This document shows positions 11,759 through 18,181 of a stretch of DNA of 45,259 bases, piece after piece; the first letter of the stretch is position 1; every line of letters begins with the position of its first letter. A program made the translations under genes and the position numbers. The notes below the pieces were generated by a model. The model was not told where the DNA came from. It worked only from the letters and a program-made list of their open reading frames with translations, and made no database searches. Source of the DNA: a virus (lineage: Duplodnaviria; Heunggongvirae; Uroviricota; Caudoviricetes); the IMG/VR virus record IMGVR_UViG_2734482549_000013; one strand, written 5' to 3'.

Positions 11759-11896
11759 ACGTTACTAGATCAAAGAGCATTAGTTCATATGTAAATTGAC
11801 ATTTTTCTGGCACAGGGGAGAGCTAGCGTGGTTGTCCGCTTTGTGCCAATAGCGGACATTGCTGGCTCATGGTATGTTAGTTTAAGGAGGCAGGTT

Positions 11897-12919
11897 ATGC
11901 CCTGTATTTCGCTGTGGTATAATAGTTGCGCAATTGATACAAGGGAGCGTTACATCGTGAAAATTGTTTTCGAGGTTAATGGAAAGAAAGTTCCACTAAA
12001 ATCTTTAAAATACATAAGCAAAAAAGATCAACTCGAAGTAATGAAAAACTGGTTCTTTGAAAACTTTGAAGATCCGGCAAATGCTTGTCCGTATGAAAGT
12101 AGAGAAGGTGGCTATGCTTACATATATGGCGGGCCGTATGATGCGAGCGAAGAACTACAATCCATCTTCGGTCAATATGTTAAATCTGAGTATATTGAGG
12201 AATTAGTAGATGAATTACAAACACAATGTTTTGACTGGTCTGGAAACTCAAATAATATAGATGATTGGTACGATGATGATATCTACGACGCTGTAACGTC
12301 TTCCGGTAATCCGTATTTAAAATTCATTGATAATATCGATAAAATAAAAAAACTTGCAAAAGATAAAACTGAACAACAGCAAAAAAACCACTTGCTTAGT
12401 TTGCTCTACACGAATGTTATTACAGCTTTGGAAACGCTTTATGTTGAGCTATTCATTAATTCTATAGAGAAAGATGATGTCTACATAGCCAATTGTATAG
12501 AAAAAGGTAAGACTGAATTTAAAGTAAGCAAAGATATTGCTGCGTTGCCTTTCAAGGGTGAACCCATCGAGAAAATTAGGGGAGAGCTAATCAGGTCAAT
12601 CAAGGAACACTTGATCAGTGCAAGCTGGCATAGCACTAAAAAGGTAATCGACCGCTATGAAGCTACATTCGATATAAAAGTACAAAAAGACTGTCCGATA
12701 GAAGCTATTGAATTGGCAACCCTCAATCGAAATCACTTAGTGCATCGTGGTGGAAAGGATAAAGAAGGGAACCTCGTAGTGATTACAGACCAGGATCTTG
12801 AAACGCTGATTGAAAATGCATCGAACCTGGCAATTATGCTCTACAACAGTTTAAATGTAGCAACGAATAAAACCACCATTTTGCAACCAGATGACAAACC
12901 GTTCATTCATGAATTTTAA
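11897..12919 (+). CDS. Cargo gene A, 340 aa, AT-rich; C-terminal HEPN-like RNxxxH motif (LNRNHLVHRGG); candidate defense/abortive-infection effector
   Basis: AAGGAGG Shine-Dalgarno at 11884-11890, ATG at 11897; codon usage visibly AT-rich compared with flanking phage genes; motif at 12728-12745. Confidence 0.7.
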   Translation: MPCISLWYNSCAIDTRERYIVKIVFEVNGKKVPLKSLKYISKKDQLEVMKNWFFENFEDPANACPYESREGGYAYIYGGPYDASEELQSIFGQYVKSEYIEELVDELQTQCFDWSGNSNNIDDWYDDDIYDAVTSSGNPYLKFIDNIDKIKKLAKDKTEQQQKNHLLSLLYTNVITALETLYVELFINSIEKDDVYIANCIEKGKTEFKVSKDIAALPFKGEPIEKIRGELIRSIKEHLISASWHSTKKVIDRYEATFDIKVQKDCPIEAIELATLNRNHLVHRGGKDKEGNLVVITDQDLETLIENASNLAIMLYNSLNVATNKTTILQPDDKPFIHEF

Positions 12920-12934
12920 TAGCGCAGGTCATAC

Positions 12935-13936
12935 ATGGATATTCGCACACGAAAGACAAAATTTTTAGAGTCGTTAGATTCAACTGAAGTGATACGCAAA
13001 GCAGTAAGTCTCGCTATAGATTGCATTATTGATAATCATAATAGTAATGAAGATACCCCCTTAGTTATTACCAGCTATGATGATCTCTGTAGAATCCAGG
13101 TGCTAAATTATGTACAGGAGTTTTGCGAAGCTGCATTCCCTGATATGGATGAATATTACTTTAGTCCTAACATACTTCGCATCAACGGCAAGACTAGTGA
13201 AGAAGCTTGTATTAACTTAATTAAACTCTTAAGAAGTACAAAAGGCATGCTATTCTGGTCCGATGCCCCATCGTGGTTCGCTAGCCTCCCCGACGGATTA
13301 TTCCATGTTGTTAACATTGATCAAAAAATCGTTACTCGCGGCCTTAATAAGAAAAACTCTAAGCCGACAATAATCAATAAAGATTACAGTGTAGATACAC
13401 TACTATCAGAGCTATTTTTGAATGGCGCACACATGGAGCAACCCAACGTACACAACGTTTCTGAGGGAAACATGAAGTTCTATGATGAATGCCATGCTGG
13501 ATTAATCAGACCAATACCCGCTCCAATAGGCGCGTCATACGATGAAGAGATCACAATTAATTCTCCAGATTGGCAAAAGCTCGCGTGTGTAGCTTTACGC
13601 CGCTATCAGTCGAAGGAATGTCATGACGGAATGCAATGGGATACAACCGATCATGGTTGGACTGATGTAATCGCGTATCCATTCGTCGAAGAAATACAAT
13701 CAATGGATAATAGTGGTTATCGACAATGTTTAGTTGGGCTGGTCACAATAAACAATTCAAATGCAAATTCTCCGTACCTATCTACCGTTTGGATACATCC
13801 ATTTTATCGCAGGAGAGGGTTATTAAGTAAGTTATGGCCAAAATTACAAGAGTTATATGGAAGTAACTTCGAAATTGAGCGACCTAATGAAAATATGAAA
13901 GCATTTCTGAAAAGTGCGAAACACGCAGATTACTAA
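12935..13936 (+). CDS. Cargo gene B, 333 aa, AT-rich; C-terminal GNAT-like acetyltransferase motif (VWIHPFYRRRGLLSKL)
   Basis: Starts 15 nt after gene A stop (operon-like); motif A-like V-x-P-x-Y-R-x-x-G at about 13786-13826. Confidence 0.7.
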   Translation: MDIRTRKTKFLESLDSTEVIRKAVSLAIDCIIDNHNSNEDTPLVITSYDDLCRIQVLNYVQEFCEAAFPDMDEYYFSPNILRINGKTSEEACINLIKLLRSTKGMLFWSDAPSWFASLPDGLFHVVNIDQKIVTRGLNKKNSKPTIINKDYSVDTLLSELFLNGAHMEQPNVHNVSEGNMKFYDECHAGLIRPIPAPIGASYDEEITINSPDWQKLACVALRRYQSKECHDGMQWDTTDHGWTDVIAYPFVEEIQSMDNSGYRQCLVGLVTINNSNANSPYLSTVWIHPFYRRRGLLSKLWPKLQELYGSNFEIERPNENMKAFLKSAKHADY

Positions 13937-14556: not shown

Positions 14557-14895
14557 CTATTTTTTGGTGCTATAGACTTTTTCGCCCGAAAAGTCTGGAG
14601 CGACCCAAAAGTTAATATTAAACTGAGCATCATCGCTTAGTTCAACACGGTGCCAGTATTGTGGTGGGCTTGTTGCAAAAGCGCCAGCATTAATGACTAC
14701 TTTTATCTCCGGTTCAGTAGCATTCTCATCAGTAAAACCATAATATGTTACAGTGCCTTCCATTACGCACAACTGCCCAAAAACACCTGCTGCTGTATTA
14801 TGATGTGTTAATAACGCTGAAGGTACGTTCTCTTTTGTGAAGAACGGAGTTGAGCGTTTGATTACCCAATCTTTAGGAATTCTCTTGTGTGTCAT
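14557..14895 (-). CDS. YeaR-like DUF1971 protein, 112 aa from MTHKRIPKDW
   Basis: Conserved pattern RSTPFF ... VMEG.V.Y.G..DE...EP ... AG.FA..PP..WH ... DD..FNI.F.VAP matches recalled E. coli YeaR. Confidence 0.65.
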   Translation of the reverse strand: MTHKRIPKDWVIKRSTPFFTKENVPSALLTHHNTAAGVFGQLCVMEGTVTYYGFTDENATEPEIKVVINAGAFATSPPQYWHRVELSDDAQFNINFWVAPDFSGEKVYSTKK

Positions 14896-15708
14896 AACCA
14901 CCTCCTCCAAAACATGCATTAAAAATGCATCTTTTGGAGGGTTATGTCAAGCTGTTATGAAACACATAATTGATATGTTGATTAGAGGAGAAGATAGAAT
15001 AAATATGGTTGTTTTTCGTATAACTATTTGTTTTACTTTTAGTTTATGCATTCTGTGTGTTAGGAATAAGTTATTAAAGTTTAATCAAAAAATCTCGATG
15101 TAGTCCACATAGATTACTGTTACTGAACCTTATTGTGTGTATTAGTTGTGTTCTGAAATTTCAGCTTAATTATTTATGATGTATTTTTTAACGATAAATA
15201 TTTTCCCAGGATACCTTTACTGTGTATATAAATAAATTATATACGCATAAATAATGTAAAGGCGTCCTTTTAGATATATCTTATCAAATGTTAATGACTT
15301 GAGTGGGAAATATGATTCCAGCAACTTATCATGTGGCTACTTTATAAAAATAATGCCCATATAAAACAACAAGCGAAAAGGATTACGGATAAAAAAGGAG
15401 CGAGATGTGCGAACTTGTTATTTTCCATGTTTAACCACCTTAAATAATTGATGATGACGGGATGATTGCATCTGTAATGCTTTTATTGAAATGTTATGAT
15501 AAAAAAGAACTTTTGCATAACATTAAAATGTAATTTATCTAATCGTTTTTAATAATAAGTGTCGTATTTCTATCCTTGTACCAGCTATTTGATATGTAGT
15601 GTTTGTTCATGCTATGTGGGGCTTTACACCATAGCCAGTTTATTTATACTTTATTCGTCAGCCTGAACAACTGGCATCTGCTGCGCTGCGCCATCGAGAG
15701 ATTGAGAA

Positions 15709-17590: not shown

Positions 17591-18181
17591 GGGCTGGTTT
17601 ATTGTATGCCAAATGATTATTAAAAAGGTTGTGTTAATAACAAGATCCGAAATAATATGCCTGCATATTTTTATCTTGCTTATATTCTGCATATTGTGCA
17701 TAGCAGGCTCATCCCTGCAATCAAAACTGTATGATGAGTATTTTTTGTTTTCCTTTTTTCCAGTCATCTGATGATGACCTGCTTCTTTTTAATCCGGATC
17801 GACATCAGTTTTTTAAGATAATTCCTGCGAGTTATATGCATAAATGCCACAAACTCCGCATTTTATGTGGTTGGGAGTTGCCGGGCGCGCAGTGAGTTTG
17901 CTAAGAAAACTCCTGCATGGTGAATCCCCCTGTGCGGTGGGGTGATACCATTAACCTTTTCTGTCGCCGACAGGTATCACGAACATTTTGTTCACCGGGA
18001 GGCACCCGGCACCATGCACTTCAATAGATTCTCTCCACATTATGGATATTCTTTCAGAATATCCCACGCAGACTTTGTGTAAATGTTAACAAATGTGCGT
18101 TTTATTTGATCTGATTCGCTGTTTGAGCGTCCAAAACAACGGTATATATAATCCTTTACTATATGACATATGTGAGGAAAA

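Follow-up and report, generated by a model that had tools for sequence, protein, structure and literature searches.

A two-gene HEPN and GNAT-fold cassette in a Rac-type prophage of Escherichia coli corresponds to the anti-phage system DS-33

The genes described here lie in IMG/VR virus record IMGVR_UViG_2734482549_000013, a 45,259-nucleotide (nt) stretch of DNA that we refer to, at its full length, as the window. The window comprises a lambdoid Escherichia coli prophage of the Rac type, with an integrase at its start, genes for RalA, recET, kilR, sieB, and ydaSTUV-like proteins, and lysis and structural genes. Two open reading frames (ORFs) on the same strand (11828..12919 and 12935..13936, both +) contain gene A (11957..12919, +), which encodes a defense effector of 320 amino acids (WP_014639476.1), and gene B (12935..13936, +), which encodes an accessory GNAT-fold protein of 333 amino acids (WP_000354966.1). 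The two genes are 15 nt apart (12920–12934). An initial annotation of this DNA had noted the close pair, correctly, and had proposed that it was an undescribed defense system with a HEPN-like and a GNAT-like protein. The cassette is DS-33, which has already been described and experimentally validated as an anti-phage system (PMC13092281).

We found the match by searching full texts and supplements for the accession WP_014639476.1, which led to the DefensePredictor paper (PMC13092281; Science 2026, with a preprint in January 2025). In Table S6 of that paper, DS-33 has the working name "GNAT," lies at NZ_QOWT01000046.1 6922–8901, is flagged as defensive, and consists of WP_014639476.1 and WP_000354965.1. 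In the main text, DS-33 appears only as part of a group of four validated HEPN systems. The cassette in the window and DS-33 share the two proteins, their order, and an E. coli source. Protein A agrees with DS-33A, as printed in Table S8, at every residue (320/320), and protein B, which we call DS-33B-like, matches the tested DS-33B (WP_000354965.1) at 332 of 333 positions. The one difference is at position 289, where the window has the consensus proline (P289) and the tested protein has leucine (L289). Since these are the same proteins, the system is not undescribed. As a discovery, our analysis adds little, because the cassette was already predicted, cloned, and validated; its value lies in annotation and in sharper questions. 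The points that go beyond the published work on DS-33 are that A is mostly found alone, that the pairing of A with B is limited to certain lineages, that the tested B carries P289L, and that A has an acidic tail ending in phenylalanine (Phe).

The published protection was measured for an ECOR-derived allele of DS-33, and Table S7 gives the mutant series as log10 protection in two replicates against five phages. Wild-type DS-33 gave 2–6 logs of protection against T7 (3.8/2.6), T3 (3.3/2.4), Bas67 (4.0/2.0), and Bas26 (5.0/5.9), and 0.8/0.1 against T5 (PMC13092281). This agrees with the proposal that the cassette acts in anti-phage defense. When the HEPN gene was deleted, or when R258 was replaced by alanine (R258A), the values were -0.5 to 0.8 on all five phages (PMC13092281). 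DS-33A and the arginine of its HEPN motif, R258, are necessary for protection against the T7-like phages (T7, T3, and Bas67) and against Bas26. With the GNAT gene (B) deleted, the values were 4.8/4.3 for T7, 3.3/3.3 for T3, 4.0/3.3 for Bas67, 5.0/4.9 for Bas26, and 1.7/0.5 for T5 (PMC13092281). In these assays the GNAT gene is dispensable for protection by DS-33, and its loss tends to strengthen defense against the T7-like phages. This result does not support the initial annotation's model of a sensor/effector pair, if both genes are taken to be obligate.

Another reading is that A and B are not a defense system at all but ordinary lysogeny or replication accessory genes with chance motif matches. 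Both are "hypothetical protein" in the Prokaryotic Genome Annotation Pipeline (PGAP), and both belong to PHROG families of unknown function. PADLOC-DB 2.0 has no matching model for the cassette, and NCBIfam gave no meaningful matches, so current PGAP and PADLOC-DB 2.0 leave the cassette unnamed in its Rac-type prophage slot. However, the published plaque assays with loss-of-function mutants contradict this reading, as do the fold matches and invariant catalytic residues that we describe below, and we consider it extremely improbable.

In DS-33A, a helical linker connects an apparent HEPN/RES-NTD1 domain at the N-terminus to the C-terminal HEPN domain, which contains R258-x4-H263. The N-terminal domain matches HEPN/RES N-terminal domain 1 of Pfam (NTD1; PF18870), at residues 26–92 (12032..12232, +). 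PF18870 matches 30/30 members of the A family (best E = 1e-6), and many homologs have a precomputed PF18870 assignment. Across 30 homologs, this region contains an invariant block of W32, F33, P40, P45, E50, G51, G52, G58, G59, and P60. The HEPN domain covers residues 144–306 or so (12386..12874, +), and the protein has the four-helix up-down bundle of the HEPN superfamily; PF18735 (RiboL-PSP HEPN) matches 12/30 members of the family. The catalytic motif is R258-N-H-L-V-H263 (12728..12745, +), the RNHLVH that the initial annotation had taken as a sign of a HEPN protein. R258, H263, and R264 are invariant in the alignment of 30 homologs, which makes this a conserved Rx4-6H motif. RNase activity of DS-33A is a prediction, and the result that bears on it is the genetic one with R258A. 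A sequence search of the PDB with gene A gave nothing useful. A search with an NTD1-only profile matched just fragments of 72–151 residues or stand-alone domains, and so does not show which effectors and tails accompany NTD1.

To see how often A and B occur together, we surveyed 80 species-representative genomes that encode a homolog of A and sought B within 6 kb. B was present at 2/80 loci (L002 and L003) and absent from 78/80, and the A proteins without B include homologs from Aeromonas and Yersinia that are 75–76% identical. No other neighboring family recurs around A in these species-level loci. Homologs of A are found in Acidobacteriota, Chloroflexota, Cyanobacteria, Desulfobacterota, and others. 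Close homologs of B usually do have A directly upstream (43/46 loci); the three loci with a close B but no A (L097, L147, and L148) are enterobacterial or viral. At ten loci, mostly from marine samples, B is 33–56% identical; none of these has an adjacent A, and their neighbors vary. Because A mostly occurs without B or any recurrent neighbor, and because distant B occurs without A, we conclude that A is a self-contained one-gene unit and that its pairing with B in an operon is young and lineage-restricted, carried by mobile elements of Enterobacterales and Aeromonas. The stand-alone occurrence of A at 78/80 loci fits a self-contained sensor plus effector, and is a second argument against an obligate pair. 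At one marine locus (L115 6049–8313), a distant B is followed, 44 nt downstream, by a 754-residue P-loop protein; another copy (L114 2387–3670) ends at the contig edge. Distant marine B may have a different partner there.

This distribution also bears on whether A and B are simply two independent cargo genes, with A as a one-gene defense and B having its own function (against other phages or plasmids, in counter-counter-defense, or in host-directed acetylation). A is mostly alone, some close B proteins lack A, and the B homologs without A in marine Gammaproteobacteria have varied neighbors, such as the P-loop protein downstream of B in L115 or a HigBA-like pair upstream in L112. The DefensePredictor log-odds also differ, at 9.45 for A and 1.08 for B (PMC13092281). 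On the other hand, the 15-nt spacing and the A-then-B order, which is kept in 43/46 close-B loci, down to about 73–78% identity of B, argue for co-transcription and joint selection. Also, B alone (in the HEPN-gene deletion) gave no protection against the five phages, and deleting B shifted the phenotype of A in the same direction in both replicates. We think it unlikely that the two genes are independent.

DS-33A ends in a disordered acidic tail whose last residue is Phe (LQPDDKPFIHEF, residues 309–320; 12881..12916, +; the end is PFIHEF). The disorder is predicted, with a predicted local distance difference test score (pLDDT) below 50 at residues 310–315. Among 108 cluster representatives of the A family, 81 (75%) are Phe-terminal and 78 have an acidic..Phe tip, as compared to 3.2% and 0.7%, respectively, of neighboring ORFs. 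The bias stays in the subset of the A family at 39% identity or less (13/32). Phe-ended tips were also noted at L064, L065, L070, L072, L074, and L081. In Alphaproteobacteria, NTD1 proteins whose C-terminal part is of another kind frequently end in ..LPF or ..PPF, too. The acidic Phe-ended tail of DS-33A resembles the C-terminal tip of E. coli SSB. This conserved, SSB-like tip offers a concrete handle for finding the trigger. The terminal Phe of T7 gp2.5 is important according to work cited in the DARNA preprint (10.64898/2026.02.22.705581).

DS-33B, which is not required for the published protection, combines an N-terminal domain of no assigned family with a C-terminal GNAT fold. The N-terminal alpha/beta domain (about residues 1–205; 12935..13549, +) has the conserved motifs IDCLIEN, LLYWAD, and RGLN. 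Using a profile of 19 homologs, we found no Pfam or PDB sequence match for these ~200 residues (the Pfam results were scattered single-member noise), and a PDB sequence search with the whole of gene B gave nothing useful. Foldseek against the PDB also left this domain unassigned: HAT1 aligns over 244–309 columns but with a template modeling (TM) score of 0.24–0.27. The C-terminal domain (about residues 206–333; 13550..13933, +) has the mixed beta-sheet and the beta4-alpha3 cofactor loop of GNAT proteins, in a model with a pLDDT of 89. The top Foldseek matches of B are HAT1, ESCO1, and MYST enzymes, and the closest folds also include alpha-TAT.

The motif-A-like segment of B, WIHPFYRRRGLLSKLW (13790..13837, +), holds, at residues 291–295, the YRRRG that the initial annotation had pointed out. 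As compared to the canonical Q/R-x-x-G-x-G/A, R292 is present in 63/63 homologs and G295 in 48/63, and position 297 is L, M, I, or F in 63/63 homologs and never G or A. Motif A of B thus appears to be only partly canonical. In the same segment, P289 (codon 13799–13801) is invariant in 63/63 cluster representatives of B. The P289 allele of the window occurs on at least 1000 contigs, compared with 31 for the tested L289 allele. This means that all that has been stated about the function of the GNAT gene comes from an allele with a mutation at an invariant residue.

Given these results, the cassette is very probably a prophage-borne anti-phage defense operon, DS-33, with A as its HEPN effector and B as an accessory. 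By analogy with other defense HEPN proteins, DS-33A would be held inactive until infection, and NTD1, perhaps together with the acidic tail that ends in Phe, would be the sensing or regulatory part. The activated HEPN site would then cleave RNA (tRNA or mRNA), as DARNA/PD-T7-3, ApeA, HepS, and PrrC cleave tRNA on activation (10.64898/2026.02.22.705581). Translation would stop, and phage growth with it. DS-33B would be a lineage-specific add-on that is co-transcribed with A and most likely tunes it down, as a mild brake. We infer that it does not act as the effector and is not essential as a sensor.

Several points weigh against this account. In the text and tables of PMC13092281, we did not find an RNase assay, an RNA target, a trigger, or an abortive-infection test for DS-33. 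The window proteins' own Pfam scores for NTD1 and GNAT fall below the curated cutoffs: PF18870 hits A alone with 22.2 bits (E = 1.9e-4; the cutoff is 27.4 bits), and PF00583 hits B with 19.9 bits (the cutoff is 20.7 bits). The suggested sensing role of NTD1 draws on aRES, and the aRES preprint (10.64898/2026.01.28.702374) does not dissect NTD1. Because the tested allele has leucine at the invariant P289, the published result that B is dispensable may not hold for the common allele, which the window carries. Finally, the stronger defense after deletion of B, a gain of 0–1.7 log in two replicates that is the basis for calling B a brake, could stem from altered expression of the construct.

B might instead be more than a mild brake. 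In a toxin/modulator pair, B would acetylate A, for example at the nearly invariant K267 just past the Rx4H motif, so that A stays inactive until infection. The AMPylation of HepT by MntA is a model for such a brake by covalent modification. The closest folds of B include protein lysine acetyltransferases (HAT1, ESCO1, MYST, and alpha-TAT), the operon is tight, and A is directly upstream in most close-B loci. Deletion of B also brought gains against T7 (1.0/1.7 log in the two replicates), T3 (0/0.9), and Bas67 (0/1.3). But a strain without B is viable and still defends, which means that A is not a toxin with constitutive activity that has to be neutralized. Furthermore, B is absent from nearly all of the species-level A loci, even where A is 75–76% identical; members of the B family at 56% identity or less never adjoin A; and K267 is also conserved in the A proteins that lack B. 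If P289L makes the tested B a hypomorph, this weakens conclusions in either direction. We regard such a pair as possible but doubtful.

A more specific idea, and in our judgement a quite improbable one, is that the P289 form of B may have protein acetyltransferase activity with which it holds back or redirects the HEPN effector, a role that P289L would have hidden, and that the acidic Phe tail that NTD1 proteins share may mimic the SSB tip. If this is true, then DS-33A would dock on, or be released by, phage replication proteins, and the tail would be the trigger-sensing element of a whole family of NTD1 defense proteins.

It is useful to compare DS-33, as a HEPN effector with an accessory protein, to known systems. 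The single-protein defense aRES has PF18870, which the A family also matches, and occurs in defense islands; A, too, stands alone in most genomes. The effector of aRES is a RES domain that degrades NAD+ instead of a HEPN domain, and no GNAT partner has been described (10.64898/2026.01.28.702374). Membership in aRES requires RES as well as PF18870; A has no RES match in Pfam and its C-terminal half is HEPN, so we rejected this assignment. The fusion of NTD1 to RES in aRES supports the view that NTD1 is a module for regulation or sensing that can be moved between proteins. The effector DS-33A is a member of the NTD1-HEPN family, which is broad, mostly stand-alone, spans many phyla, and parallels the NTD1-RES defense.

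The B protein of PD-T4-2 (Vassallo et al. 2022) is a HEPN protein of the RiboL-PSP type (PF18735), and HHblits links DS-33A to PD-T4-2_B with a probability of 96.1 over 55% of the protein (PMC13092281). PD-T4-2 pairs its HEPN protein with a DUF262 protein (PMC10952713), while DS-33A has NTD1 and no DUF262 partner. There is no DUF262 gene in the cassette and no PD-T4-2 model in PADLOC matched at E up to 1, so we rejected membership in PD-T4-2. DARNA/PD-T7-3, which protects against T7, T3, and T5 (10.64898/2026.02.22.705581), is a lone HEPN protein whose sensing part is not catalytic, as DS-33A would be, and could serve as a working model for DS-33A. Its HEPN domain is N-terminal and its sensor domain is another one; beyond the HEPN fold, there is no detectable sequence relationship to DS-33A. 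In HepT/MntA, a HEPN RNase is controlled by an adjacent modifying enzyme. We rejected this type VII assignment because the neighbor of A has a GNAT fold and is not an MNT nucleotidyltransferase, and because A is viable without B. Lastly, the GNAT-RHH pairs (TacT and AtaT) have a GNAT enzyme in a two-gene conflict module. We rejected this type II assignment since B, at 333 residues, has an extra domain, and no RHH (ribbon-helix-helix) gene was found among the Pfam matches or ORFs.

The initial annotation gave 333 residues for protein B, which stands, and 340 residues for protein A, which holds only if translation begins at ATG 11897. The conserved start of gene A is GTG 11957 (320 residues). 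GTG 11957 is the start in the PGAP annotation (WP_014639476.1) and in the published protein, and homologs of A are 310–320 residues long. There is no conservation of the 20 codons upstream of it, which fall out of frame in the Serratia locus (L003, 98% identical) and are broken by stops in L006 and L007. Also, an extended -10 sequence lies 3' of ATG 11897. We therefore rejected ATG 11897, despite the strong AAGGAGG that precedes it. The extended -10 (TGgTATAAT; 11915..11923, +), which we read from the sequence, is a putative promoter element of the cassette. A similar element is present in the Serratia homolog (TGgTACAAT) and is also kept in L006. A scan for consensus promoters and terminators showed no enrichment over shuffled sequences and did not list this element. 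A Shine-Dalgarno-like AGGGAG (11942..11947, +) lies 9 nt before GTG 11957, and AAGG(C/A)G is at the equivalent place in L004 and L005. An inverted repeat, GTCCGC...GCGGAC (11834–11857), sits between the DUF977 gene and the promoter region of the cassette. It is also conserved in the Serratia locus and may serve as a terminator or operator.

The cassette is preceded by replication genes (DUF1376/ydaU, DnaC-like, DUF1627, and DUF977) and followed by DUF1367/DUF1364/DUF1133. Its GC content is 0.361 in gene A and 0.391 in gene B, versus 0.47–0.53 in the upstream replication genes and 0.50 in DUF1367/DUF1364 downstream. The slot after the DUF977 gene varies among E. coli prophages, which have different cargo there; some hold small nin-type genes. 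The initial annotation was therefore right about the AT-richness of both genes and about their placement in a cargo hotspot after the replication module, and the low GC content and the variable slot support its view that they are horizontally acquired cargo. The whole cassette is present in about 4% of complete E. coli genomes (205/5426), and the DUF977 flank in 3920 of them. Among GenBank phage records, none contains the cassette; the matches are just to the DUF977 gene flank.

In E. coli W, the slot after the DUF977 gene holds a three-gene unit of DUF262, an AAA ATPase, and a hypothetical protein (L154 5622–8825), and in strain 17a it holds a DUF5677 protein (L157 5663–6688). Both are probably other defense cargo. 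Some prophages (L152 4644–5606; proteins P0147 and P0148) carry a 320-residue chimera in which the N-terminus of the DnaC-like replication protein is joined to residues 133–333 of B. Apparently, DUF1627, DUF977, and gene A were lost in an internal deletion, along with the beginning of B. In two E. coli genomes (matches H4 and H10), the cassette is in two or three pieces with transposase genes of IS2 or ISSen4 under the match, which suggests insertion of these elements within or beside the cassette.

Elsewhere in the window, the opposite strand carries a DUF1971 gene (14557–14919, -). Directly after it, positions 14920–15708 have a GC content of 0.305 (down to 0.27 in some windows) and no ORF of at least 100 codons, and they lie just ahead of the DUF1367 gene. 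This AT-rich stretch may be more cargo or a regulatory region. Two Rfam matches are above the gathering score: the RalA antitoxin small RNA (1557–1735, +; 225 bits) and the STnc100 small RNA (17885–18071, +; 87 bits).

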